A DNA stretch of 64,000 bases, from the IMG/VR virus record IMGVR_UViG_3300028581_000010; one strand, given 5' to 3'. A program made the position numbers and the translations under genes. This document shows positions 23,695 through 35,499 of the stretch, in pieces (the first letter of the stretch is position 1; each line of letters starts with the position of its first letter). The DNA comes from a virus. Its lineage: Duplodnaviria; Caudoviricetes. Below the pieces are notes generated by a model. It did no database searches, was not told the origin of the DNA, and worked only from the letters and a program-made list of their open reading frames with translations.

Positions 23695-24156
23695 TTATTC
23701 GGTTTCGTGGTCCACAGGATGCATGTCCTGCAGGTAGTTCTCGAGTGTGGTTATCGAGAGGCCAAGCTCCTTGAAGAAGATTCCACCGCTACCACCGTAG
23801 TAGCCTTCATATTGCTCCTGTATAACAAATATGGCACGGCTGCCCTTGCTCATAAAGCAGTAGCCCTCCATATCCGATAGAGAGGCAGCTGCAATGAGAT
23901 ACTCCGCATACGCCTTTGTCTTCTTGAAGGCCTTGGCGCTCAGTGTATAGGGGCTATCTATTACGTTGGACTCTCCCAGCGTGATGTCTCTATACGTACC
24001 GTCAGTCAACTGATGGAGAGGTATGGTGAACTGAATCTCTCCAGCGTGCCACTCTATACCTTTCTCCGTCAGCTGCTTAAGTGCTTTCTTCGAGACGCCG
24101 AAGTGCTTGTATACTTGTGTGAGAATCTTGGAGCGTGTGAGGTTTAGTTTAGACAT
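23695..24156 (-). CDS. Hypothetical protein
   Basis: 153-aa ORF. Confidence 0.65.
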   Translation of the reverse strand: MSKLNLTRSKILTQVYKHFGVSKKALKQLTEKGIEWHAGEIQFTIPLHQLTDGTYRDITLGESNVIDSPYTLSAKAFKKTKAYAEYLIAAASLSDMEGYCFMSKGSRAIFVIQEQYEGYYGGSGGIFFKELGLSITTLENYLQDMHPVDHETE

Positions 24157-25232
24157 TGGAATAGAAGCTTCTTCATATCATCGTTATCCAGTGTACCTCC
24201 GTCAAGCAATTTAAATGCGAAGCCTGCACGGTTCGTATTGCCGTAGGCCTGCGTAATTGCCAGAGCCGCTTCCTTGCGCCCCGAGCGCTCCTTACCATCG
24301 AAGCCACGTACAAACTGCTCCATGTGTGTCGTTATTCTGTTAACCGTCACCATGGCATCACATATCTTGGAGGCATCTGCCGAGGCTCTGAGCATGCACT
24401 CGAAGTCCAGCTCGTCCTGCAGGTAGGCCATGAAGTCTATGTAATGCGGTCTGCCCTGTTGAAGGTACAAGTCGATGACTCGCTCCACAGAGTAGTCAGA
24501 CTTGAACCGGTGCTTAGCCAGGTAGTCGTCACTCTTGACCTTCTTAATGTCCTGATCGTTATGGTAGTATATGCAGTAGCCCTCGATGCCCAGCACGGTC
24601 TTCATTTCATCCGTAAGCTTGTACAGGTCGCTGTACGTGGCTGTCTTAGGTCTCTTGAGCTTGTACTCCCGCGCAATCTGATCCAGCTCGTGCTGCGGCA
24701 GATACGAATAGTCCAGGTGCTGCACAACACCAACCAGACGTATGTCTGGAATAGCGCCGTAGTCCAGCACTATGACGTTTGTAGGAGTAGTGAACTCATA
24801 CAGAAACGTGTACTGCTCGGAGTTAATCTGAGGGTTGTCGAACGCCATAGGATAGAAGTCCTTGAGCAACTGTAGCTCATCGGCGTTTGCTTGCTCGGCA
24901 AAATCTACCGTACCCCTCGTGCGCACTATCTCATGCCCCTTGTGTTTGGAGACGATGAGGCACGTGCCGTCGAGCTTCTCCACGACTGTGCACTTCTCCA
25001 GCGACACCGGATCGGCGCATATATGAGGAGCTTCACCCAGGTTAAAGAATTTTTTGAAACCCAGAGAGACAGGCTTGCCGTCTCTTGTCCACATGCTTGA
25101 TCTGTAGATCATATTCTCTGCGCCCCACTTGACGCCTATCTTCGTTGGGTAGACCAGATAGAGCTCCTCGCCCTTTATGACTCTGGTCTTAACCGCAAAT
25201 TCCTGTTCTTTGAGTTTCTCTAAGTTAATCAT
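24144..25232 (-). CDS. RNA ligase, T4 Rnl1-like
   Basis: FKKFFNLGE, motif I EKLDGT, FLYEF, motif IV IEGY, motif V KVKSDDY. Confidence 0.85.
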   Translation of the reverse strand: MINLEKLKEQEFAVKTRVIKGEELYLVYPTKIGVKWGAENMIYRSSMWTRDGKPVSLGFKKFFNLGEAPHICADPVSLEKCTVVEKLDGTCLIVSKHKGHEIVRTRGTVDFAEQANADELQLLKDFYPMAFDNPQINSEQYTFLYEFTTPTNVIVLDYGAIPDIRLVGVVQHLDYSYLPQHELDQIAREYKLKRPKTATYSDLYKLTDEMKTVLGIEGYCIYYHNDQDIKKVKSDDYLAKHRFKSDYSVERVIDLYLQQGRPHYIDFMAYLQDELDFECMLRASADASKICDAMVTVNRITTHMEQFVRGFDGKERSGRKEAALAITQAYGNTNRAGFAFKLLDGGTLDNDDMKKLLFQCLN

Positions 25233-26709: not shown

Positions 26710-27249
26710 TTAAGTTGGTGGGCAGAGTAGCATATGCTGCTCCGCATGACAGTTGCGGCACAGTATTTGCAGGTTATTTAAGTCGGAGTTACGCCTATTT
26801 TTATCTTTATGGTGCACTTCTAGCAATTTGGGGAATTTATCATAACTACATAACTCACAGCAGCTTGCTTTATGTTTAAACGCCTTAGCTCTATAGCGGC
26901 TGTAGCCTTCTTCCCCAAGGGTCCCGTAGTGCTCGGGTAAAAACTCCAAGGGGCCACCTACGTGCTGCGCACTAGCCCTACAGGTATTAGAGCAAAAGTA
27001 TAAGCCGCTTTTAGATAGCTTCAACCTACGCGGTGAGCGGTATAGTGCTTTTGCGCAAGCTGCGCACTTTACGTTACTACCCATCCGTTCTTTTCTTTCA
27101 GCTGTTTCTTTTTTACGACGGGCTGCTATGTCCTCTCGGACACAAGCAGCAGAGCAGTATAGCCCCCAACCACGGGCCACATCTCTGGCGGTGGTTAAGA
27201 AGGATTTAGAACAGCGCTTACAGTTTCTGTGTACATTTTTCGTTAACAT
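26710..27249 (-). CDS. HNH homing endonuclease with N-terminal Zn fingers
   Basis: CELC...LEVHHKDKNRRNSDLNNLQILCRNCHAEQH; own promoter TTGTGA-16-TATATT. Confidence 0.85.
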   Translation of the reverse strand: MLTKNVHRNCKRCSKSFLTTARDVARGWGLYCSAACVREDIAARRKKETAERKERMGSNVKCAACAKALYRSPRRLKLSKSGLYFCSNTCRASAQHVGGPLEFLPEHYGTLGEEGYSRYRAKAFKHKASCCELCSYDKFPKLLEVHHKDKNRRNSDLNNLQILCRNCHAEQHMLLCPPT

Positions 27250-27315
27250 AACTACGAATATACACGGTAGATAGAAAATCACAATCTAAATCTGCGTCTA
27301 CCCTGTTGGAAAGAA

Positions 27316-27386
27316 TGGGAGGTGAGGGGATCGAACCCCCGCTTTCTCCGTGTAAAGGAGACTCGCTACCATTACAACAACCCCGC
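27316..27386 (-). tRNA. tRNA-Val(UAC), 5' half overlapping the HNH gene end
   Basis: Loop TT-TAC-AC in stem TCTCC/GGAGA; canonical T-arm; acceptor has a C2:C71 mismatch and the D-stem is weak. Confidence 0.75.
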
Positions 27387-27698
27387 GTGTATTTCGGCGT
27401 GGCAATTTGCACACACCAAATCACATTTGTCTAGCTCGTCAGTAACCTTAGCCCAGGCTCGATTGAATCCAGTACCTATTCCGAAGTCCTTCTTATCCGG
27501 ATCCCTGTGGTGGAAATGCAGTGCAGCTAAGCATTTATCATAGTTGCAATATTTACATTTTCCTCCTTTGTACTCGACAGCTTTACCTTTAATCCTTAGA
27601 TTTTTTGCTTTAGTGAAACACGAGTTGCACATTGTTACTCTGTGCCCGCGACTTCTGGCGTACGCGTATTCCCTGCCGCATTTTTTGCATGTGGTCAT
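27372..27698 (-). CDS. HNH homing endonuclease inserted in tRNA-Val
   Basis: CKYC...LHFHH...ELDKCDLVCANCHAEIH; stop codon lies inside the tRNA D-arm. Confidence 0.85.
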   Translation of the reverse strand: MTTCKKCGREYAYARSRGHRVTMCNSCFTKAKNLRIKGKAVEYKGGKCKYCNYDKCLAALHFHHRDPDKKDFGIGTGFNRAWAKVTDELDKCDLVCANCHAEIHAGLL

Positions 27699-27733
27699 TC
27701 ATAATATTTACCACACACGGTAGACTTAGTCAA

Positions 27734-27757
27734 GCTCTACCGCTGAGCTAACCTCCC
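27734..27757 (-). pseudogene. Orphan 5' half of tRNA-Val (acceptor strand plus D-arm)
   Basis: GGGAGGT-TA-GCTC-AGCGGTA-GAGC; GGGAGGT is the perfect complement of ACCTCCC at the tRNA-Val 3' end (27317-27323). Confidence 0.85.
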
Positions 27758-27769
27758 GGTTGTTAAATT

Positions 27770-27846
27770 TGGTGGGCGCGGTAGGATTCGAACCTACGAC
27801 CTATCGCCTATCAAGCGATTGCTCTAACCAGCTGAGCTACGCGCCC
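27770..27846 (-). tRNA. tRNA-Ile(GAU)
   Basis: Cloverleaf, loop TT-GAT-AG, encoded CCA. Confidence 0.93.
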
Positions 27847-27847
27847 G

Positions 27848-27925
27848 TGGGGTACTCGATGGGGCTCGAACCCACAACCGCCCGACCCACAATCGGGAGC
27901 TCTAACCAATTGAGCTACGAGTACC
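27848..27925 (-). tRNA. tRNA-His(GUG)
   Basis: G-1:C73 pair, loop TT-GTG-GG, encoded CCA. Confidence 0.93.
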
Positions 27926-27930
27926 GTTTG

Positions 27931-28245
27931 TTATGTTGCTTTGTATTTTTCGCAAAGATCCCGCATTGGAACGTATACGATAGGCGCAAGCAGGTTTTCC
28001 ACTTCCTCGGCTGCGATCTTGATTACGTCTCTGTTGTAAGCACTTATAGCGTACGTCCTTTTTCGGAGATGGTGTTCCAACTTGTGTACTTGAAAATAGG
28101 ATACATACAGGCTTTTCTTGCTGGCCACCTCCTTAACCACAGCGAAGCGCATGACTGTATTCACAGGAAACATCACGTAGTCTCCTGGAAACACCGGGCG
28201 CTTAAATAAGTCTAAAAATACTTCTGGTTGTCGTTTGTCATCCAT
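27931..28245 (-). CDS. Hypothetical protein
   Basis: 104-aa ORF; DLFKRPVFPGDYVMF is an SH3-like start common in phage small proteins. Confidence 0.6.
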   Translation of the reverse strand: MDDKRQPEVFLDLFKRPVFPGDYVMFPVNTVMRFAVVKEVASKKSLYVSYFQVHKLEHHLRKRTYAISAYNRDVIKIAAEEVENLLAPIVYVPMRDLCEKYKAT

Positions 28246-28383
28246 TGTTGTTAAATTTACTTGCCTAATTTATTGATTTTGGGCATAGTTGCCGTATGAA
28301 TAAAGGATTTAAAGATAAGATGCGTATTTGTCTTTGTGCAAAAAGTACTCGAGCATAACGGATATACTATCTCGAAGAAAAAG

Positions 28384-28467
28384 CAGCGTCGCTAGGGGTC
28401 GAACCTAGAATGCCTAATAGGCTCTATCTCCAAAGGATAGTGTGTCTACCAATTTCACCACGACGCT
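28384..28467 (-). tRNA. Class II tRNA with UUG (Gln) anticodon on a Leu-type scaffold
   Basis: AGCGTCG/CGACGCT-G73; D-arm GTGAAATTGGTAGACAC; loop CT-TTG-GA; variable hairpin GCCT-ATT-AGGC. Confidence 0.8.
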
Positions 28468-28505
28468 AAAGCTGTCAGCCATATCTATGTGCTGTAAGTA
28501 AATTA

Positions 28506-28578
28506 TAGGAGCTCTGGGACTCGAACCCAGAACCAAGAGCTTAAAGGGCTCCTGCTCTACCAATTGAGCTAAACTCCC
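28506..28578 (-). tRNA. tRNA-Lys(UUU) with C33
   Basis: Cloverleaf; loop CC-TTT-AA. Confidence 0.88.
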
Positions 28579-29003
28579 TGTAATTTATTGTTAGCTAAGT
28601 AATGCAATTCTCTGTGGCAGTTAGCGCAGAGCACCTCACATTTAGCAATCTCGCGTAGAAGTGTGGTCCTTGAATATTTTGCGTACATCACGGATACTTC
28701 ATGAAGTTTATCTTCAGCCTTGTGGTGAAAGTCTAATACATAGTGTCTTGCGTCTCCACATTTAGAGCACTTTAATGTTTGCTTATACTCTATAAACCAC
28801 GTTTTGTTTTCTTGTACGCGCGCAGCTCTCTTGCCGACCTCCGTTTGTTTATTACGCAAATAATAGGCTGTACGGCGCTGTGAAGAGCACGTCTTGCACA
28901 TACACTGCCTGCTCACATATATACTGCCGTCCTTGCGCTTTTTATTTTTTATCCAAAACTGAGACAGGTCCAGCTGCTTCTTACATTTGCTGCATATTTT
29001 CAT
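28569..29003 (-). CDS. HNH homing endonuclease
   Basis: CSKCG...LDFHH...EIAKCEVLCANCHRELH; stop TAG = tRNA-Lys positions 8-10. Confidence 0.85.
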   Translation of the reverse strand: MKICSKCKKQLDLSQFWIKNKKRKDGSIYVSRQCMCKTCSSQRRTAYYLRNKQTEVGKRAARVQENKTWFIEYKQTLKCSKCGDARHYVLDFHHKAEDKLHEVSVMYAKYSRTTLLREIAKCEVLCANCHRELHYLANNKLQGV

Positions 29004-29009
29004 TCTGTA

Positions 29010-29038
29010 AATATACAGCTAAAAAGCAGTGCTGTCAA
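29010..29038 (-). promoter_or_regulatory. sigma70-like promoter (leaderless HNH transcript)
   Basis: TTGACA-17-TATATT, ATG 7 nt downstream. Confidence 0.7.
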
Positions 29039-29066
29039 ACTTTAAAGATGCTGACAGTCTATTGGA

Positions 29067-29138
29067 CGGAGCCTACGGGATTTGAACCCGTGTTACAGCC
29101 GTGACAGGGCTGCGTGTTAACCACTACACTAAGACTCC
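29067..29138 (-). tRNA. tRNA-Asp(GUC)
   Basis: Cloverleaf, loop CT-GTC-AC, G73. Confidence 0.93.
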
Positions 29139-29147
29139 AAGACCTTG

Positions 29148-30281
29148 TTAAATATCCAGGTCCATGCAGGACAGCCCGTTACCCATAAAGCGGTTTCCAC
29201 CACCACGGAACACTCTGTTGTAAGAGCTGCGAGGCTCGATACGCAGAGTACGAATGGGCTGCTTGCAGATGTCGAGTTCCGTATCATTTTCCTCAGCATC
29301 AATAATCTCCTTCTCAGTGAATGCGGAGTATATGTTGATCAGATCCGTGTCGAGTACCTCGGCGATCTGGCCGAGCTCGTCGCGGTTGGCCCAGAGGTCG
29401 TAGCCCACACAGCCATAATTGAGCGGAGCGGGCCGCAGCTTGATGTTATCGTGCAGCAGCTTCTCGCCAATAGGCGTGCCATTCTCATCCTTGATAACCT
29501 CGTAGACGGCGTGCAGATCCGCGATCTTCTTGACGTTGAACACGTCTTCGAAGGCGGAAGGAGCCTCGTGGTGAATGTTCACCTCATCGATGATGGCGCA
29601 CACGGAGTCCACCGTAATAAGCTCCAGCTCGGAGACGAAGTCGATGACAGACTGCCGCAGCTCGGTATACTTCAGCCGGTCATCCACGATCTGGTAGATG
29701 ATGTCCGGATGCAGGTTGCCGAATGTCTTCACGTACCGAATACGTCCTGGCCGCTGTATCATGTTGGGCTCGATGTTGAGCTCGTTGGTTGTAAGCAGAA
29801 ACAGCTTGCGGTAGGCACCCTTGGTAACGCCGTCCATAAGCATGAGCAGTTTACTTGGGTGGCCGTATTCCCGAGGAAATACCTTCTCGAACTCGTCGAA
29901 GAAGAGCACCACGTCCTGCTGAATGTTACCGACGAACTCATTGATGTCGTCGTAGGCAGCGTCCACGATGATCACGGGCAGCTGCAGCTTGTTGGCAAGA
30001 ATCTCGCAGGTAACCGTCTTGCCGGTACCCCGAATGCCGTTTAGCAGCGCTCCGAGGTTGGTAGTTGTATTGTTCCAGGTACGGATGACACGTGCGATAA
30101 AGTCGTCGCACAGGCCATATACCTTCGGTGGCAGAGGGAACTCCTTGGAGATGTGCTCCAGAAAGAATCCCATGCGTTGGTTCCACCGAAGGATGTATAT
30201 TCCAATCGGTAGTAGTTCTAGTTGCTGGCTAACCTCTTCGATGCGGAAGATGTTGCCACTCTGTGACCAGTTGTTTTTCAT
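29148..30281 (-). CDS. AAA+ ATPase
   Basis: Walker A GIRGTGKT, Walker B FFDEFEK, sensor TTN, Arg finger RPGRI. Confidence 0.9.
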   Translation of the reverse strand: MKNNWSQSGNIFRIEEVSQQLELLPIGIYILRWNQRMGFFLEHISKEFPLPPKVYGLCDDFIARVIRTWNNTTTNLGALLNGIRGTGKTVTCEILANKLQLPVIIVDAAYDDINEFVGNIQQDVVLFFDEFEKVFPREYGHPSKLLMLMDGVTKGAYRKLFLLTTNELNIEPNMIQRPGRIRYVKTFGNLHPDIIYQIVDDRLKYTELRQSVIDFVSELELITVDSVCAIIDEVNIHHEAPSAFEDVFNVKKIADLHAVYEVIKDENGTPIGEKLLHDNIKLRPAPLNYGCVGYDLWANRDELGQIAEVLDTDLINIYSAFTEKEIIDAEENDTELDICKQPIRTLRIEPRSSYNRVFRGGGNRFMGNGLSCMDLDI

Positions 30282-30309
30282 TTATGTGTTGTGGTGTGTT
30301 GGTTGTTTA

Positions 30310-30972
30310 TTAGTAGGTCTTTCCCTCGGCATAACGCTTCCTGCGATATGCCCGCCCTTTTCCTTTATTCTTGTTCTTATACGTTGGTAGCTGCATGTCG
30401 CAGTTTCCGCAAACTAAGCGGATGTTATTTATCTTGTTGTTGCCGGAGTCTCCATCAATGTGGTCCATGATTAACGGAATAGGTTGTCCTTGCCATGTTG
30501 TATTCTTACATATGGCGCAGTTGTGTCCTTGTTTTTCCAGCATATAACGCTTAGCTGGGCCTTTTGATCTGGCTGCTATAAAGCTGCCACTCTCGATAAT
30601 TTTGGCGCGCGACGCTGCTCGCCGTGCTTCTGTAGCGCATTCCTGTGAGCAGTACTTAGTGTAAGTCATCACCTTTTTGCAGGTTGCGCATGCCTGTTGT
30701 GTACGTTGCAGCCTAGCTACAGTTACAATATCTAGCGAGCCTGCGCCACGCCGATATCGGCCTACATTGTTGTGGCTTACAGCGCAACCGCAGCTACAAA
30801 ACTTATTATGTCTTTTAGCGTATATAAGTTCCCGTTTACAGGTAGTGCAGTGTGCAGGGTTATCTTTATATTGTTGCTTGCGCTTTAAGCATATAGCTTG
30901 TTGCGTTTCTCTGGATTTTAGCCAACCTAGCCTCCCAGCTTCGGTATGGCTCATTTTATTAGTTGAGTTCAT
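30310..30972 (-). CDS. HNH homing endonuclease with Zn fingers
   Basis: CAIC...MDHIDGDSGNNKINNIRLVCGNC; promoter TTGAAT-16-TAGACT, 7 nt before ATG. Confidence 0.85.
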   Translation of the reverse strand: MNSTNKMSHTEAGRLGWLKSRETQQAICLKRKQQYKDNPAHCTTCKRELIYAKRHNKFCSCGCAVSHNNVGRYRRGAGSLDIVTVARLQRTQQACATCKKVMTYTKYCSQECATEARRAASRAKIIESGSFIAARSKGPAKRYMLEKQGHNCAICKNTTWQGQPIPLIMDHIDGDSGNNKINNIRLVCGNCDMQLPTYKNKNKGKGRAYRRKRYAEGKTY

Positions 30973-31017
30973 GCAACAAGTCTACCAACCATTGCAAAAC
31001 ATTCAAGTATAAAGATG

Positions 31018-31091
31018 AGCCCTTGCTCAGATTCGAACTGAGGACATCCTCATTACAGGTGAGGTGCTCTAACCAACTGAGCTACAAGGGC
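31018..31091 (-). tRNA. tRNA-Thr(UGU) with C33
   Basis: Cloverleaf; loop CC-TGT-AA. Confidence 0.9.
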
Positions 31092-31094
31092 TTA

Positions 31095-31165
31095 TGGAGC
31101 TGTCGAGGGTCGAACTCGAGAATCCGGCTTGCAGGGCCAGTGTTTTACCACTAAACTACAACCCC
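31095..31165 (-). tRNA. tRNA-Ala(UGC) with C33
   Basis: G3:U70 Ala identity pair; loop CC-TGC-AA. Confidence 0.9.
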
Positions 31166-31176
31166 ATGTAAAAATC

Positions 31177-31250
31177 TCGGAGAAACAGGATTTGAACCTG
31201 CGGCCTCCTGGTCCCAAACCAGGCGCTCTACCAAGCTAAGCTACTCTCCG
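31177..31250 (-). tRNA. tRNA-Pro(UGG)
   Basis: C1:G72, loop TT-TGG-GA. Confidence 0.93.
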
Positions 31251-31943: not shown

Positions 31944-32549
31944 TTAGCTTAACTGCAGGCTCTTTGGTAATCCATCGCCTTCGATGGTCTTCTTGAAGCA
32001 CATGTTTGCGGCGATATGGTAGCACACGATGCCCTCAGGGTTCATGAAGCCTGGTGCGGCTGCGCTGCCGTTTTCCTTTAGCTTGGCTAGCGTATCGTCA
32101 CATGCTTCTGTTGTAAATGGTCCCCTGTATAACACAGGCGCCAAGTGGCAGCAGGCAGGCAGCACTTCCTGGAGCTTGCTACCAACCAAAGCGGGCTCTG
32201 TGCCGTGAGCGCACCATCTGGAGACGTTGAATAGGCTCCAGCGCTTTTCCTTCATGTTGTATTTTCTCTGAATACCCAAGCCCCACCATTCTCCAAAGTG
32301 GCGGCCAGGCCCAAGAGTAATGAGCTCGTCACGGTGCTCTGTTACCCAGCGGGCAAACCCAGCATTATCATCCTGAGGTGTAATCCACCTCGTACGGGAG
32401 CCGATCAACAGCTTGCCCTCGTCAGTGATGTACACACAGGCGTTGGTCCCATCGATTTTTTCACTAATTATTACTTCTCTTGACAATCTCGCCATCTTTG
32501 GGAAAGCAAGAAACTCGTCATTTATTGTTGTTTGATTTGTGTTTTCCAT
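31944..32549 (-). CDS. RNA ligase (Rnl2-like adenylyltransferase domain only)
   Basis: EKIDGTN, GSRTRWI, FGEWWG, PEGIV, FKKT. Confidence 0.85.
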   Translation of the reverse strand: MENTNQTTINDEFLAFPKMARLSREVIISEKIDGTNACVYITDEGKLLIGSRTRWITPQDDNAGFARWVTEHRDELITLGPGRHFGEWWGLGIQRKYNMKEKRWSLFNVSRWCAHGTEPALVGSKLQEVLPACCHLAPVLYRGPFTTEACDDTLAKLKENGSAAAPGFMNPEGIVCYHIAANMCFKKTIEGDGLPKSLQLS

Positions 32550-32991
32550 GTCCTGTTTTACGATCTCGTGTTCTTATTCTATGGCAGTTGGCGCAAACTA
32601 AGTCACACTTGTCTAGTTCCATCTGGATTAGCTCTCGGCTATAATGGTGTGCAAACATAGTACCAACATTGTACTTTTTCTTTGCACCGCGGCAGTGATC
32701 AAAGTCCATGCAGCATGTTGGGAACTTTCCGCCGCAGTCTATGCACACCTTAGATTTTAGCTCTATCATCCACGTTTTGAGTGCCTTAGCCTTATCCCCC
32801 TCCTCTCGCCAGTTCCCCTCTGCAGCGTAACGCCTTGCACGATATTTTCGTACTGCTTCATTAAGCTTATCTCTATTGTTTTTCCTCCAATACTTGTGTC
32901 GGCAACGTGCAGAGCAGAATTTTGGCGGATGACTACGATATTTGCGTACTGACTTATTTAAGCATTCGGGGCATATTAGCGTTATTTCCAT
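32518..32991 (-). CDS. HNH homing endonuclease
   Basis: CIDCG...MDFDH...ELDKCDLVCANCHRIRT; start set at MEITL from the promoter position. Confidence 0.85.
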   Translation of the reverse strand: MEITLICPECLNKSVRKYRSHPPKFCSARCRHKYWRKNNRDKLNEAVRKYRARRYAAEGNWREEGDKAKALKTWMIELKSKVCIDCGGKFPTCCMDFDHCRGAKKKYNVGTMFAHHYSRELIQMELDKCDLVCANCHRIRTRDRKTGHGKHKSNNNK

Positions 32992-32997
32992 ATATGC

Positions 32998-33026
32998 ATT
33001 ATGGTTCAAACGCTAAATTATGTCAA
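32998..33026 (-). promoter_or_regulatory. sigma70-like promoter (leaderless HNH transcript)
   Basis: TTGACA-17-CATAAT, ATG 7 nt downstream. Confidence 0.7.
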
Positions 33027-33043
33027 TAAGTATTTGGGCTTAA

Positions 33044-33775
33044 CTAGACTAGTAGTTTTTTGTAGGCCCTCTTACAGATGTCGACTGCGACATCAGTGTC
33101 GAAGGTCATTACAACACCTGGGGCTTTTCTAGCCTCGTCGAATTCGTTCATGGCTCCTGTCGCCCAGACCTGCAGCTCCTCCACACTGAATAGCTCAGGG
33201 TTTGTTCTTATCTTAAGTAGTTGGTCCGCCAATGCAGGCTTCCACTTGCGCACATGCACAGGATAGACACCGGTTCTTAGAAACTCAGCGCTGCATAGCA
33301 ATATGCGTATAGCGTGCGCTACGTTCTTCGGAGAGAAGCCGTATTTGGCTAGGAGCTCTTTTCTACTCGCGCCTAGGTCACCAGCCTTCTGGCCGAAGCC
33401 CACCATGATCTCGTTTGAGGCATACCCCATCGAGGCATGGCCGTAGTGGTTGGTGTCTATGAGCTGCGACCTGTGTTGGAGTATGTCCTTCAGCACGTCG
33501 CTGCTATAGAGCCACGTATCGTTGAACATCAGCTCGACGGTCTTGACCGTTGATCTGCGACACAGATGTAGAAAGTGGCGCAGTTCCCAGTACGACTCGT
33601 TCTCCGTTGTAGTGTTGTGCACCCAGCTATCGTCTGTGGCTAGGCCGAACAGTGCGCCTGGTTTGTCTGTGAGGTATATACCAGCATAGTCATGATCGCT
33701 GTCCTCGGTATTGATCCCATACATTCGAGATCCGTTTAGGTAAAGTCCTACGTAATTAAGTTTTTCATTTGGCAT
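33044..33775 (-). CDS. RlaP-like (Pol beta superfamily) nucleotidyltransferase
   Basis: GSRMYGINTEDSDHDYAGIY (GS...DxD), E-x-x-x-F, KNVAHAIRIL. Confidence 0.8.
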   Translation of the reverse strand: MPNEKLNYVGLYLNGSRMYGINTEDSDHDYAGIYLTDKPGALFGLATDDSWVHNTTTENESYWELRHFLHLCRRSTVKTVELMFNDTWLYSSDVLKDILQHRSQLIDTNHYGHASMGYASNEIMVGFGQKAGDLGASRKELLAKYGFSPKNVAHAIRILLCSAEFLRTGVYPVHVRKWKPALADQLLKIRTNPELFSVEELQVWATGAMNEFDEARKAPGVVMTFDTDVAVDICKRAYKKLLV

Positions 33776-33817
33776 ATTGTCAATAGCTAAGACTTGCTCG
33801 GTGCAGACTACAATGCT

Positions 33818-34321
33818 TTATGGCTCTTGTAGTAAATACTGCGTCATCTCTTCGATCGAGTAGCAAATCACACCGTTGTAACCAAAACAGGCAGCTCGAA
33901 CGATAACTTCTTGCCCGTATTGGTAGGTCATAGGAAAGCCGACCACCAGCTTCTGCTTTACAGCGTCCACTTCATGGGACTCGCTGACACACTCCTGCCT
34001 TTGTAAAATAGCACCTAGCTCAAACATAGCCAGGTCTTTACAAAAGTCATCCTCGAACCACAGCACTACAGTAGATGCGCTCTTGCATCTCTTGTGCTGC
34101 CATTCTATATCCGTGTACTGCTCCTCCGCGGTCTGACGATGCAGAACCTGCCAAGTGGGTTTGGGTACATAGATTGTTGTTGCGGTGTGTTGCAACCCTC
34201 CGTTGACTAGCCTGTCTCTCCAGTTGTCTTCCACATACTGTGAGGGGCTGCCGCCTAGGTATATTGTCTTAGGAAATCTCGCCTTCTCGTAGTTCGGGCT
34301 TACTATTATCTGTGCTATCAT
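33818..34321 (-). CDS. Nucleoside 2-deoxyribosyltransferase-like protein
   Basis: TIYLGGS...WRD...EWQH...VVLWF...MFELGA. Confidence 0.7.
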   Translation of the reverse strand: MIAQIIVSPNYEKARFPKTIYLGGSPSQYVEDNWRDRLVNGGLQHTATTIYVPKPTWQVLHRQTAEEQYTDIEWQHKRCKSASTVVLWFEDDFCKDLAMFELGAILQRQECVSESHEVDAVKQKLVVGFPMTYQYGQEVIVRAACFGYNGVICYSIEEMTQYLLQEP

Positions 34322-34709
34322 GATTGAATATTATGCGCATGTGATTGTCGAGTATATTTGAGGCCTCTTCCTTGGTTACCCATAGAAAGCTGTCCAGCTC
34401 GGGCTCGCCGTTAGGGCACAAGGCTATGCACCTTATATCCTCGGGGACCTCCTGCAGCTCTGCAGCAAATACGACAATCTCCTTCTTGTGGCGCTTGGTT
34501 GTGTAGCGCATTATCGGCGTTACACCAATGTCGCCAGGCTGGAGAGTTATGTTCGTCTCCTCCTTGAGCTCACGCAGGGCAGTCTCGGCCTCTGTCTCGC
34601 CTTCCTCTTGCTTACCTTTAGGTATGCTGTAGCTCTTGAAAGTACCGCTGGCTCTACCCAGCAGGTACTTGTCCTTCACCTTCAGCAGAACCCCACACGA
34701 CTTTATCAT
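34269..34709 (-). CDS. Nudix hydrolase
   Basis: Nudix box GKQEEGETEAETALRELKEETNI. Confidence 0.9.
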   Translation of the reverse strand: MIKSCGVLLKVKDKYLLGRASGTFKSYSIPKGKQEEGETEAETALRELKEETNITLQPGDIGVTPIMRYTTKRHKKEIVVFAAELQEVPEDIRCIALCPNGEPELDSFLWVTKEEASNILDNHMRIIFNHDSTDNSKPELREGEIS

Positions 34710-35499
34710 TTTTGTATTTGATTATGTTGATGGTACCGTTTTCGATTGTCAGATACTCCTCACCCAGAGTATCTATGAAGTAGCCGTTAGCGATGCTATC
34801 CTTCTTGTTTGGAAACCAGCTCTGTACCACGTGCCTGTTCGGCGTATGGCCCATGATCTGGTCAATGCCGCGGATTGGTGTGAACTGTGTCATGTGTAGC
34901 CAGTACGGCCCGCCATGACCAGGTTCTCCGCACCTGTAGCCTTGATACATGAAGTGATGGTAGCCGCTCTTCTCCGCCGCTTCGCGCCACCTCGGCTCCT
35001 GCTTCTTCATCTCAAAGAGATGCTCGTCCACAGTGAGGTCCATCAGGTGCCTAAACTTGCCACCCTTCTTCACGTACTCCATGTGGCGGAATCCGTATAG
35101 GTTGGCTAGCGTGAAGCCTGCGTGGCTTATGACTATGGGCCGCTCGTCTCTACCGCGTTGAATCTCGTAGTAGAGCCTCAGCTGCCGGAAGTCCAGCTCG
35201 TTTATAATGCTTCGTATGGCCCTGTTCTTCTCTGGGCTGTATCCTGGACACCACAACGCACTATTATGACAGAAGGCGTAGGCTGCGTCGTGGTTGCCTA
35301 GGAGATGTATGCGGTTTGGCCTGGTAAGAGACCTCTTGAGCCAGTTGGCCGTCTTTCTTGCTATGTGCTCGTCATCTCCCCAGCCGTCGAAGTAGTCACC
35401 ACAAAATATGATCTTGTGAGTGTCCTCGTACTTGGAAGCAACGTGCTCAGCCGCATCTATTCTGTTGTGTATGTCTCCGTATACGAGGTACTTATCCAT
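34654..35499 (-). CDS. Calcineurin-like metallophosphoesterase
   Basis: GDIHN, GDYFD, GNHD, SHAG, GHTP. Confidence 0.9.
   Translation of the reverse strand: MDKYLVYGDIHNRIDAAEHVASKYEDTHKIIFCGDYFDGWGDDEHIARKTANWLKRSLTRPNRIHLLGNHDAAYAFCHNSALWCPGYSPEKNRAIRSIINELDFRQLRLYYEIQRGRDERPIVISHAGFTLANLYGFRHMEYVKKGGKFRHLMDLTVDEHLFEMKKQEPRWREAAEKSGYHHFMYQGYRCGEPGHGGPYWLHMTQFTPIRGIDQIMGHTPNRHVVQSWFPNKKDSIANGYFIDTLGEEYLTIENGTINIIKYKNDKVVWGSAEGEGQVPAG

Follow-up and report, generated by a model that had tools for sequence, protein, structure and literature searches.

U33 is taught as being among the most invariant nucleotides of tRNA. Within 64,000 nucleotides of phage DNA (hereafter the window), three of ten tRNA genes encode C at this position, and the question raised by the locus is why U33 was given up in these three and kept in the other seven. 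The window is 64 kb of the ~215-kb genome of an uncultured lake-water jumbo phage, and the stretch is present in eleven lake-water metagenome runs. A second tRNA island of this genome lies outside the window; C33 counts given here for the phage refer to the window's ten tRNAs. Our tentative answer, to which we assign a probability of roughly 0.4, is that C33 is a tolerated swap whose retention is due to a blunting of host enzymes that read U33. Near-neutral drift comes close behind in likelihood: phage tRNAs may be under looser constraint, and a cheap pyrimidine swap may have drifted to fixation or been favoured in a C33-tolerant host, with no defensive role.

Three intact elongator tRNAs carry C33

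The ten tRNAs found by ARAGORN all lie on the minus strand (Table 1). [quoted passage not shown] The RF00005 scores of the three exceed the gathering score of 29. Their 5-bp anticodon stems are intact (GGAGC/GCTCT in tRNA-Lys, CCTCA/TGAGG in tRNA-Thr, CTGGC/GCCGG in tRNA-Ala), the loops have 7 nt, and no stem mismatch occurs in the cloverleaves. G18G19 is present, and the amino-acid identity elements match the anticodons: discriminator A73 in tRNA-Lys, which has no encoded CCA; G1:C72, C2:G71, G35 and U36 in tRNA-Thr; and, read from the sequence, the alanine identity pair G3:U70 in tRNA-Ala. These assignments follow identity rules that we take to apply here (UUU and A73 for Lys, the Thr elements, G3:U70 for Ala). 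The T-arm positions G53, T54, T55, C56, A58 and C61 are canonical in all ten tRNAs. The U expected at position 33 of a canonical elongator is absent from the Lys, Thr and Ala tRNAs. Single-sequence MFE folds of the Thr and Ala tRNAs did not return a cloverleaf; this is common for unmodified tRNA sequences and carried no weight against the two genes. The three genes are best explained as working elongator tRNAs in which U33 is replaced by C.

An unusual G38 in tRNA-Ile (loop TTGATAG) and tRNA-His (loop TTGTGGG), also pointed out in the sequence-only reading, is indeed present. Among viral tRNAs, 2.2% have G38, almost always together with U32. The tRNA-Gln(UUG) gene is 85 nt long with a long extra arm.

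Table 1. Features of the window; positions are counted from its first nucleotide
Feature	Position	Strand	Evidence and remarks
T4 Rnl1 (RnlA)-family RNA ligase	24144..25232	-	PF09511 E = 2.2e-14; phrog_562 E = 1.7e-35
Other HNH genes	26710-27282, 27372-27698, 28569-29003, 32518-33009		C-x-x-C-A-N-C-H motifs read from sequence
tRNA-Val(UAC)	27316..27386	-	ARAGORN, Rfam; U33; HNH-type ORF directly upstream
tRNA-His(GUG) and tRNA-Ile(GAU)	27770..27924	-	ARAGORN, Rfam; both U33, U32/G38
tRNA-Gln(UUG)	28383..28467	-	ARAGORN; Rfam 50.7 bits with permissive filters; loop CUUUGGA, U33
tRNA-Lys(UUU)	28506..28578	-	ARAGORN, Rfam 65.9 bits; loop CCUUUAA, C33 at 28546
tRNA-Asp(GUC)	29063..29139	-	ARAGORN, Rfam; loop CUGUCAC, U33
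AAA+ ATPase within tRNA cluster	29148..30281	-	PF00004; phrog_2376 E = 2e-53
HNH homing-endonuclease gene, tRNA-Thr/ATPase interval	30310..30972	-	PF13392/PF01844
tRNA-Thr(UGU)	31017..31091	-	ARAGORN, Rfam 68.2 bits; loop CCUGUAA, C33 at 31058
tRNA-Ala(UGC)	31095..31165	-	ARAGORN, Rfam 60.3 bits; loop CCUGCAA, C33 at 31134
tRNA-Pro(UGG)	31177..31250	-	ARAGORN, Rfam; loop UUUGGGA, U33; 10 nt upstream of tRNA-Ala
RNA ligase (PF09414)	31944..32549	-	Pfam E = 5e-14; phrog_548 E = 1.5e-31; beside Pro-Ala-Thr tRNAs
RlaP-type nucleotidyltransferase of RNA-repair operons (PF10127)	33044..33775	-	Pfam E = 8.8e-14; phrog_388
Calcineurin-like phosphoesterase, possible RNA end-healing enzyme	34654..35499	-	PF00149 E = 1.6e-8

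The C33 changes are real and derived

The same letters were found in further assemblies. Logan contigs span the Lys, Thr and Ala tRNAs in runs X3 and X4 and the Lys loop in run X8, in each case with 0 differences, and the Pro-Ala-Thr tRNA genes of ENA contig L262 are identical to those of the window. No variants were listed at the three C33 sites in the contig comparison across runs, which used contigs at about 5x depth per run rather than raw reads, so that rare variants are possible. This low depth is what could speak for an assembly or sequencing artefact; the agreement of contigs from at least three further runs with a separate ENA assembly, and the occurrence of the same change in three separate genes, leave such an artefact with practically no weight. 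The view that sequencing error is unlikely thus stands, as does the independence of the three changes: the tRNAs are not paralogues, and the changes are real.

Other tRNA positions undergo C-to-U editing in organelles, trypanosomes and archaea. That C33 of the gene becomes U33 in the mature tRNA by editing, as the sequence-only reading had also proposed, is nevertheless very improbable. No deaminase domain was found among the ~50 window ORFs scanned, which cover 64 kb of the ~215-kb genome, and editing of position 33 was not found described in the literature searched. Furthermore, a C33 tRNA-Ala is encoded in rRNA operons of lineages without known editing of this kind (see below). No RNA run containing the window stretch was listed.

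Comparison with homologues gives the direction of the change. T33 is present in every homologue that shares the Lys anticodon arm, 74 from metagenomes and 4 from viruses. Among 95 Thr tRNAs sharing the window's anticodon arm, T33 is found in 91, including all of the closest ones (89-91% identity). The Lys and Thr tRNAs depart from their closest relatives in nothing but compensated changes in stems, a single indel in the D-loop and U33 to C. The exchange at position 33 is the sole substitution at an unpaired site, an argument against purely neutral change. On these alignments the C33 state is derived.

There is no near match among cultured phages, the best polymerase identity to any of them being ~25%. 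Relatives in IMG/VR (62-66% polymerase identity) have their tRNA clusters in corresponding places with different tRNAs, all T33, and this speaks against evasion. No close relative carrying the window's Lys, Thr and Ala tRNAs was found among the IMG/VR relatives and cultured phages, a search of metagenome contigs for the tandem Ala-Thr pattern gave no match, and the flanking RNA-repair genes are absent from the retrieved relatives' loci. Lineage conservation of C33 is therefore not demonstrable among the relatives found, a point on the side of near-neutral drift. A comparison of tRNA similarity gave no host assignment for the phage.

C33 is recurrent among viral tRNAs and very infrequent in the sampled cells

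In an unbiased set of 1602 viral tRNAs, C33 was present in 51 (3.2%), compared to 5 with G and 3 with A at this position. This preference for C of ~6 to 1 over G and A together is expected if the mildest substitution is simply tolerated. When one identical pattern was applied to both, viral contigs gave 13 C to 273 T and 301 Pseudomonadota genomes 3 C to ~4750 T (p = 2e-14), an excess of ~75 times for this matched pattern. Among ~158 Lys and Thr matches listed in 120 Bacteroidota genomes, none had C33; the cellular baseline thus comprises these two phyla. The strong viral excess is among the points in favour of the nuclease evasion proposed in the sequence-only reading, an interpretation that was borne out in part.

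C33 is also clustered by genome beyond chance, which neutral drift does not readily explain. Four loci with at least three C33 tRNAs were observed where 1.1 were expected (p = 0.014), and bystander C33 reached 7.3% in loci chosen for one C33 tRNA versus 2.1% otherwise (p = 3e-6). For the window itself, at least three C33 among ten tRNAs would arise by chance with P ~0.001-0.003 at a viral C33 rate of 2.3-3.2%; the window was selected from many, and a coincidence of 0.1-0.3% is possible. In phage tRNAs C33 is a recurrent feature that clusters by genome; the sampled cellular genomes have it very rarely. We found no description of C33 in phage tRNAs in the literature searched.

The shared U34, A37 and A38 of the three tRNAs had been pointed out in the sequence-only reading. 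This context is the most frequent loop type and no signature of C33, as C32 with A37A38 occurs in 65% of C33 and 58% of T33 viral tRNAs (p = 0.53) and U34 in 61% of C33 viral tRNAs versus 51%, so that the C32/U34/A37/A38 context is not enriched. C33 occurs across many isoacceptors, and overall no preference among them is significant (p = 0.13); a contrast of Ala, Glu and Lys with Met and Arg (p = 0.0007) was picked post hoc and is not usable as evidence. The lack of isoacceptor bias and of a special loop context counts against evasion and agrees with drift.

Other invariant positions were compared with position 33. In viral tRNAs, G53, T54, T55, C56, A58 and C61 deviate at 1.6-4.7%, comparable to 2.7% at position 33, and the viral excess over cells may thus reflect looser constraint. 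In the window, however, three of ten tRNAs are changed at position 33 and none of 60 sites at these six T-arm invariants (Fisher p = 0.002), a point against neutral relaxation. Decay of the C33 genes was considered and rejected, as any T-arm deviation is seen in 17% of C33 and 12% of U33 viral tRNAs; the absence of greater degeneration also argues against drift.

C33 is compatible with cellular life. Some Bacteroidia encode a tRNA-Ala(UGC) with C33 between the 16S and 23S rRNA genes, in 16S-Ile-Ala-23S operons, and its loop, CCUGCAA, is identical to that of the window's tRNA-Ala. C33 tRNA-Ala was found in these operons and in Ile-Ala pairs of many Clostridia bins (L326, L334, L342 and ~50 more). 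Unlike the phage tRNA-Ala, to which they are only 77-80% identical, these copies are chromosomal housekeeping genes. C33 is thus not lethal, and because such cells exist we infer that it still allows decoding, in these tRNAs of GCN codons. Compatibility with an essential function is also what near-neutral variation would require.

Several C33 members occur in long arrays of accessory tRNAs in bacterial bins and mobile elements (L271, L275, L282, L338, and L314 of Acidithiobacillus ferrivorans), for example in 8 of 21 tRNAs of L271 and 8 of 24 of L282, often with CC-NNN-AA loops. On their cellular contigs these arrays pack 13-29 tRNAs into 8 kb, whereas the window has nine tRNAs in 4 kb of phage DNA, interrupted by HNH genes.

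RNA-repair genes surround the cluster

The cluster is flanked by two RNA ligase genes, one of Rnl1 type, and by genes for an RlaP-type protein and a phosphoesterase (Table 1), and this setting fits a conflict over tRNAs. The Rnl1-family ligase scored 65 bits with TIGR02308, under the equivalog cut-off. No polynucleotide kinase domain was found in the window ORFs scanned, and ORFs of 153 and 324 aa near the repair genes matched no family. Homologues of the AAA+ ATPase lie in or beside tRNA clusters at 20 of 38 viral loci. The HNH gene at 32518-33009 matches PHROG HNH families.

Host enzymes that read U33 as candidate targets

If C33 serves evasion, it would remove a handle used by host anticodon-loop enzymes while decoding would still be allowed. 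Its most likely benefit would be that the three tRNAs are poor substrates, either for a PrrC/RloC-like host anticodon nuclease that recognises or cleaves the 33|34 junction, or for a host loop-modifying enzyme whose product such nucleases need, for example TsaBCDE and t6A37. The phage could then keep translating AAA/AAG, ACA and GCA codons during an attack on host tRNAs; a second line of defence would be provided by the RNA ligases and repair enzymes next to the cluster.

PrrC cleaves immediately 3′ of U33 and RloC likewise at 33p34 (PMC2610378), so that C33 is the nucleotide 5′ of their cut. On the other hand, the K. lactis gamma-toxin cleaves a C33 stem-loop as well as a U33 one (PMC2275089), and AriB of the PARIS system cuts at 40|41, away from position 33 (PMC12409363). 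Lys(UUU) and Thr(UGU), targets of PrrC and PARIS in E. coli, are the main ones of AriB there, and T5 answers with variant tRNAs (PMC12409363), which fits the conflict setting. No bacterial nuclease blocked by C33 is known from the literature searched, in which tRNA-Ala(UGC) was also not found as a named nuclease target. Among modification enzymes, E. coli TsaBCDE and yeast KEOPS leave U33C tRNAs unmodified, with the t6A37 block by TsaBCDE seen in vitro (PMC8887486), and Elongator, which modifies U34, requires U33 (PMC11096365). TrmJ of S. acidocaldarius requires U33 as well, while E. coli TrmJ is indifferent to U33C (PMC4105751), a further point against evasion.

The TsaBCDE block and the U33 requirement of Elongator make it likely that the modification state of the C33 tRNAs differs. 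They are also consistent with a role other than evasion, which we regard as unlikely: C33 might tune U34 decoding through a changed U-turn and absent t6A37 or xm5U34, or it might be a self-mark against a phage-encoded U33-dependent tRNase. All three tRNAs read A-ending codons via U34, and ACA leads the Thr codons of the window genes (37%). However, AAA is the minor Lys codon there (26%), three other U34 tRNAs of the cluster (Val, Gln and Pro) keep U33, and C33 viral tRNAs show no enrichment of U34. As for the self-mark, no HEPN, PrrC or colicin-type nuclease was found among the ~50 window ORFs scanned.

Relation to known phage and cellular systems

A close parallel to evasion is T5, whose Lys(UUU), Thr(UGU) and Asn(GUU) tRNAs are insensitive to PARIS AriB (PMC12409363, PMC11464382). 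Both phages carry Lys(UUU) and Thr(UGU) copies with a substitution in the anticodon stem-loop, both encode RNA-repair genes, and the proposed logic, continued translation while host tRNAs are cut, would be the same. The protective changes of T5 lie at 39 and 41, around the 40|41 cut, rather than at 33, and the window's set includes tRNA-Ala, which is not a reported target in the literature searched. Resistance is shown for T5 and hypothetical for the window tRNAs. A general hypothesis of nuclease-insensitive phage tRNAs has been put forward by van den Berg et al. (eLife 2023; PMC10264068), without mention of position 33.

T4 answers PrrC by repair with Pnkp and Rnl1 (PMC2610378), and the window's Rnl1-family ligase lies 3.3 kb from tRNA-Lys(UUU). 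T4, however, repairs the host tRNA-Lys and encodes no Lys tRNA, and in the window a phosphoesterase and an RlaP nucleotidyltransferase are present while no Pnkp-type kinase was found. A natural, functional C33 is known from the initiator tRNA-Met of multicellular eukaryotes, which is rejected by the bacterial and yeast t6A machineries, so that C33 alters the range of enzymes accepting the tRNA (PMC8887486); these are cytoplasmic CAU initiators, unlike the bacterial-type Lys, Thr and Ala elongators of the window.

A broader proposal would be that bacterial anticodon-loop enzymes, defence nucleases and modification enzymes alike, share U33 as a handle for recognising tRNAs, and that its repeated exchange for C gives phages and mobile arrays stealth tRNAs with decoding intact. 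The layered kit of this phage against tRNA-targeting immunity would then consist of the three C33 tRNAs, the two RNA ligases, RlaP and the AAA+ ATPase. In a stronger version, the phage would itself destroy host tRNAs with U33 while sparing its own. We consider this proposal doubtful.

Implications

Our counts suggest that viral and mobile tRNAs regularly have C in place of U33, often several times in one genome. If it is tolerated drift only, the view of U33 invariance would still be revised, and the Lys(UUU), Thr(UGU) and Ala(UGC) tRNAs would then not need the classical U-turn hydrogen bond for decoding. If, on the other hand, C33 weakens the action of host nucleases or modification enzymes, it would offer a simple and portable route to tRNAs that resist tRNA-targeting immunity. 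U33 would then be a recognition element for bacterial enzymes, as has been shown for TsaBCDE and Elongator, with consequences for phage host range, for orthogonal tRNA design and for the use of phage therapy where strains carry PrrC-, RloC- or PARIS-type systems.

Three tRNA genes carry C33

ARAGORN places ten tRNA genes in the window, each of them on the minus strand; nine are grouped within 4 kb (27316-31250) and tRNA-Met lies apart (1948-2021). Nine of the ten score above the threshold of the Rfam tRNA model, the tenth being a long-armed tRNA-Gln. [quoted passage not shown] Stem mismatches are absent from the three C33 tRNAs, and G53, T54, T55, C56, A58 and C61 are canonical in all ten. In this window, which was picked as odd-looking, position 33 is altered in 3 of 10 tRNAs versus 0 of 60 cases at these six T-arm invariants (p = 0.002). 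G3:U70 in tRNA-Ala, A73 in tRNA-Lys and G1:C72 with C2:G71 in tRNA-Thr were read from the sequence, and we take them to be identity elements for the respective amino acids. Since the three tRNAs are alike only in the common tRNA core, the C33 changes are independent, as had also been claimed. The unusual G38 reported for tRNA-Ile(GAU) and tRNA-His(GUG) was found as described; both combine it with U32, and tRNA-His also has G37. Among sampled viral tRNAs, G38 occurs in 2.2% and is nearly always accompanied by U32.

The window belongs to an uncultured lake-water phage, whose genome of roughly 215 kb has a second tRNA/tmRNA island beyond the window. The stretch is present in 11 lake-water metagenome runs, and an exact copy of the RNA-ligase protein adjoining the cluster was observed on contigs that reach 215 kb. 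Logan contigs of the lake-water runs X3 and X4 contain identical Lys, Thr and Ala tRNAs, and a Logan contig of a further run, X8, also covers the Lys loop. The Pro-Ala-Thr genes are identical in a separate ENA assembly contig (L262). No variants are listed at the three C33 positions in the Logan contigs (~5x depth). An assembly or sequencing artefact might be considered, as the support comes from contigs at this depth and not from raw reads. However, the identical letters recur in three genes and across several assemblies, and the same error in all of them is very unlikely. The probability of an artefact is very low, in line with the earlier judgement on sequencing error, and the C33 observation itself is secure.

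Features of the window on and around the tRNA cluster (anticodon arms read from the sequence)
Feature	Position	Strand	Remarks
tRNA-Lys(UUU)	C33 = 28546	minus	stem GGAGC/GCTCT, loop CCTTTAA
tRNA-Thr(UGU)	C33 = 31058	minus	stem CCTCA/TGAGG, loop CCTGTAA
tRNA-Ala(UGC)	C33 = 31134	minus	stem CTGGC/GCCGG, loop CCTGCAA
tRNA-Ile(GAU), tRNA-His(GUG)	27770-27924	minus	U32 with G38
tRNA-Gln(UUG)	28383-28467	minus	85 nt
tRNA-Val to stranded tRNA 5′ piece	27316-27757 (minus strand)		
Stranded tRNA 5′ piece	~27757-27734		GGGAGGTTAGCTCAGCGGTAGAGC
Insert of 392 nt	joint 27341-27734		
HNH-type ORF	27372-27698	minus	between stranded piece and tRNA-Val
Second small HNH-type ORF	28569-29003	minus	C-x-x-C-A-N-C-H motif
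AAA+ ATPase, phrog_2376	29148-30281	minus	inside tRNA cluster
T4 Rnl1-family RNA ligase	24144-25232	minus	opposite flank of cluster
RNA ligase, PF09414	31944-32549	minus	cluster flank
RlaP RNA-repair nucleotidyltransferase	33044-33775	minus	cluster flank
Calcineurin-like phosphoesterase	34654-35499	minus	cluster flank
Nudix hydrolase	within 31944-35499	minus	cluster flank
Nucleoside 2-deoxyribosyltransferase-like protein	in RNA-repair set (24144-25232 and 31944-35499)	minus	
ThiF/E1-like protein, PF00899	43537-44250	minus	

Gene content of the tRNA cluster and its flanks

The cluster is broken up by HNH homing-endonuclease genes and one AAA+ ATPase gene. Of 38 unrelated viral contigs with homologues of this ATPase, 20 have them within or immediately next to a tRNA cluster; for example, in loci L084-L092 they are flanked by tRNAs on both sides, and in L058 and L064 they follow 26-27 tRNAs. 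The protein may be a companion of tRNA clusters. One HNH-type ORF separates tRNA-Val from a stranded tRNA 5′ piece. Pairing of the tRNA-Val 3′ acceptor strand is perfect with this piece but includes a mismatch with the present 5′ end of the tRNA, and the 392-nt insert is absent from other contigs of the same metagenomes. The stop codon of the second HNH-type ORF lies in the first 10 nt of tRNA-Lys (GGGAGTTTAG), so this endonuclease gene overlaps a C33 tRNA. tRNA-Gln(UUG) has a Leu-like D-arm and an extra arm that forms a stem-loop of 3 bp with a 5-nt loop; the Rfam tRNA model gave it 50.7 bits with permissive filters only. In bacteria, long extra arms are normally restricted to Leu, Ser and Tyr tRNAs; G73, a weak A1:U72 pair and G2:C71 in this tRNA resemble tRNA-Gln identity elements.

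The RNA-repair set on the two flanks holds two RNA ligases from different families, Rnl1-type and PF09414, and no recognisable polynucleotide kinase was found. The remainder of the window carries replication and recombination genes (UDG-PolA, DnaB-like helicase, RecA-like, SbcCD-like). Neither a deaminase nor a tRNA-modifying enzyme nor a recognisable tRNase was found among the ~50 window ORFs scanned. The lack of a deaminase in this set speaks against the proposal that C33 is edited to U33, which we consider very improbable.

C33 is recurrent in viral tRNAs

Viral samples were drawn blind to position 33, using search patterns with Y or N there and counting all bystander tRNAs in the loci. Position 33 is C in 51 (3.2%), G in 5 and A in 3 of 1602 unique viral tRNAs. 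For the comparison with cells, an identical pattern (canonical D-arm, fixed spacing, GTTCRA T-loop) was applied to both sets. It matched 13 C33 versus 273 T33 viral tRNAs, and gave three C33 matches in 301 evenly drawn Pseudomonadota genomes, for which a T33 total of ~4750 was calculated from 15.8 per genome (331 matches in 21 genomes). C33 is ~75-fold commoner in viral tRNAs than in these genomes (p = 2e-14). A narrower C33 pattern had no match in 150 Pseudomonadota genomes, and no C33 was seen among ~158 Lys/Thr matches listed for 120 Bacteroidota genomes. C33 clusters by genome: four loci with at least three C33 tRNAs were observed versus 1.1 expected (p = 0.014), and bystander tRNAs carry C33 in 7.3% of cases in loci chosen for one C33 tRNA versus 2.1% otherwise (p = 3e-6). 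Grouping of C33 tRNA-Thr genes at 88% identity gives over 50 clusters, indicating that the change arose many times. The recurrent pattern is real.

Deviations at the T-loop "invariants" of these viral tRNAs run at 1.6-4.7%, which is the range of position 33, also where the D-arm is canonical. Enrichment over cells alone cannot tell adaptation from generally looser constraint. These deviations favour the view that C33 is a tolerated, near-neutral change, a serious possibility that falls short of an even chance. The loop context C32/U34/A37/A38, which had been stressed for the three tRNAs, turned out to be simply the commonest loop (58% of T33 versus 65% of C33 tRNAs, p = 0.53). No enrichment of U34 was found among C33 viral tRNAs, and isoacceptor differences are not significant overall (p = 0.13). 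C33 tRNAs were also considered as degenerate genes and are no more degenerate than other tRNAs.

In cells, a C33-specific pattern was searched in one genome per species. Among the matches listed, at least ~50 are Ile(GAU)-Ala(UGC) pairs in Clostridia and Bacteroidales bins with the Ala loop CCTGCAA (among loci L263-L382); in three Bacteroidia (L326, L334, L342) the two genes sit between 16S and 23S rRNA. Such positions imply that C33 is compatible with housekeeping decoding. This chromosomal tRNA-Ala(UGC) seems to be a cellular exception to U33 that is specific to certain lineages, and no mention of it was found in the literature searched. The matches listed also include long arrays on bacterial contigs, with 13-29 tRNA genes in 8 kb and C33 in up to one third of the members (L271, L275, L282, L338, L363, L314; Actinomycetota, Eremiobacterota, Methylomirabilota, Acidithiobacillus ferrivorans). 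Outside the Clostridia and Bacteroidia lineages, C33 is found mainly in accessory tRNA sets that are probably mobile.

C33 is derived in this lineage

No close phage relative was found, cultured phages reaching at most ~25% polymerase identity. Polymerase identity is 51-66% in 17 IMG/VR contigs; the five of these examined have tRNA clusters in the same relative positions, with different tRNAs that all carry T33. Homologues were searched with patterns that fixed the anticodon arm and left only the D-loop, the T-loop, positions 8-9 and position 73 free to vary. With either pyrimidine allowed at position 33, the Lys arm was found in 9 viral and 74 metagenome contigs, all with T33. The Thr arm is of a type common to many phage tRNA-Thr genes, including those of T-even phages, and 91 of 95 unique viral copies have T33, among them the closest relatives (89-91% identity). 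T33 throughout the Lys homologues and in the closest Thr relatives shows that C33 is derived in this lineage. Compared with the nearest homologues recovered by these patterns, the Lys and Thr tRNAs show compensated stem changes, a single D-loop indel and the replacement of U33 by C. C33 arose under purifying selection that preserved the rest of the tRNA.

Possible consequences for anticodon-loop enzymes

PrrC cuts tRNA-Lys 3′ of U33, and RloC also cleaves at the 33p34 junction (PMC2610378). Neither E. coli TsaBCDE nor yeast KEOPS places t6A37 on U33C tRNAs (PMC8887486), and U34 modification by Elongator requires U33 (PMC11096365). On the other hand, gamma-toxin is indifferent to C33 (PMC2275089), and U33 is required by one TrmJ but dispensable for another (PMC4105751). 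Anticodon-loop enzymes thus often, but not always, read U33. [quoted passage not shown]

Nuclease-insensitive phage tRNAs are the closest known kind (T5 versus PARIS and retron effectors; the van den Berg hypothesis). Their changes are at positions 32 and 37-41, whereas those of the window tRNAs are at position 33, which the van den Berg paper leaves unmentioned (PMC10264068). Full-text literature searches found no description of C33, U33C or "position 33" in phage tRNAs. It is improbable that C33 serves another function, such as decoding or self-marking against the phage's own nuclease.

Our preferred reading is that, with C33, some host enzyme directed at the anticodon loop would accept the three phage tRNAs only poorly; the most plausible such enzyme is a nuclease that acts at 33|34 or that needs U33-dependent modifications. 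If the host enzyme behaves like that of E. coli, t6A37 is predicted to be missing from the Lys and Thr tRNAs, which have U36-A37-A38. The neighbouring repair genes show that the phage is equipped against RNA damage. To the reading that C33 may blunt the action of a host loop-directed enzyme on these three tRNAs we assign a probability of roughly 40%.
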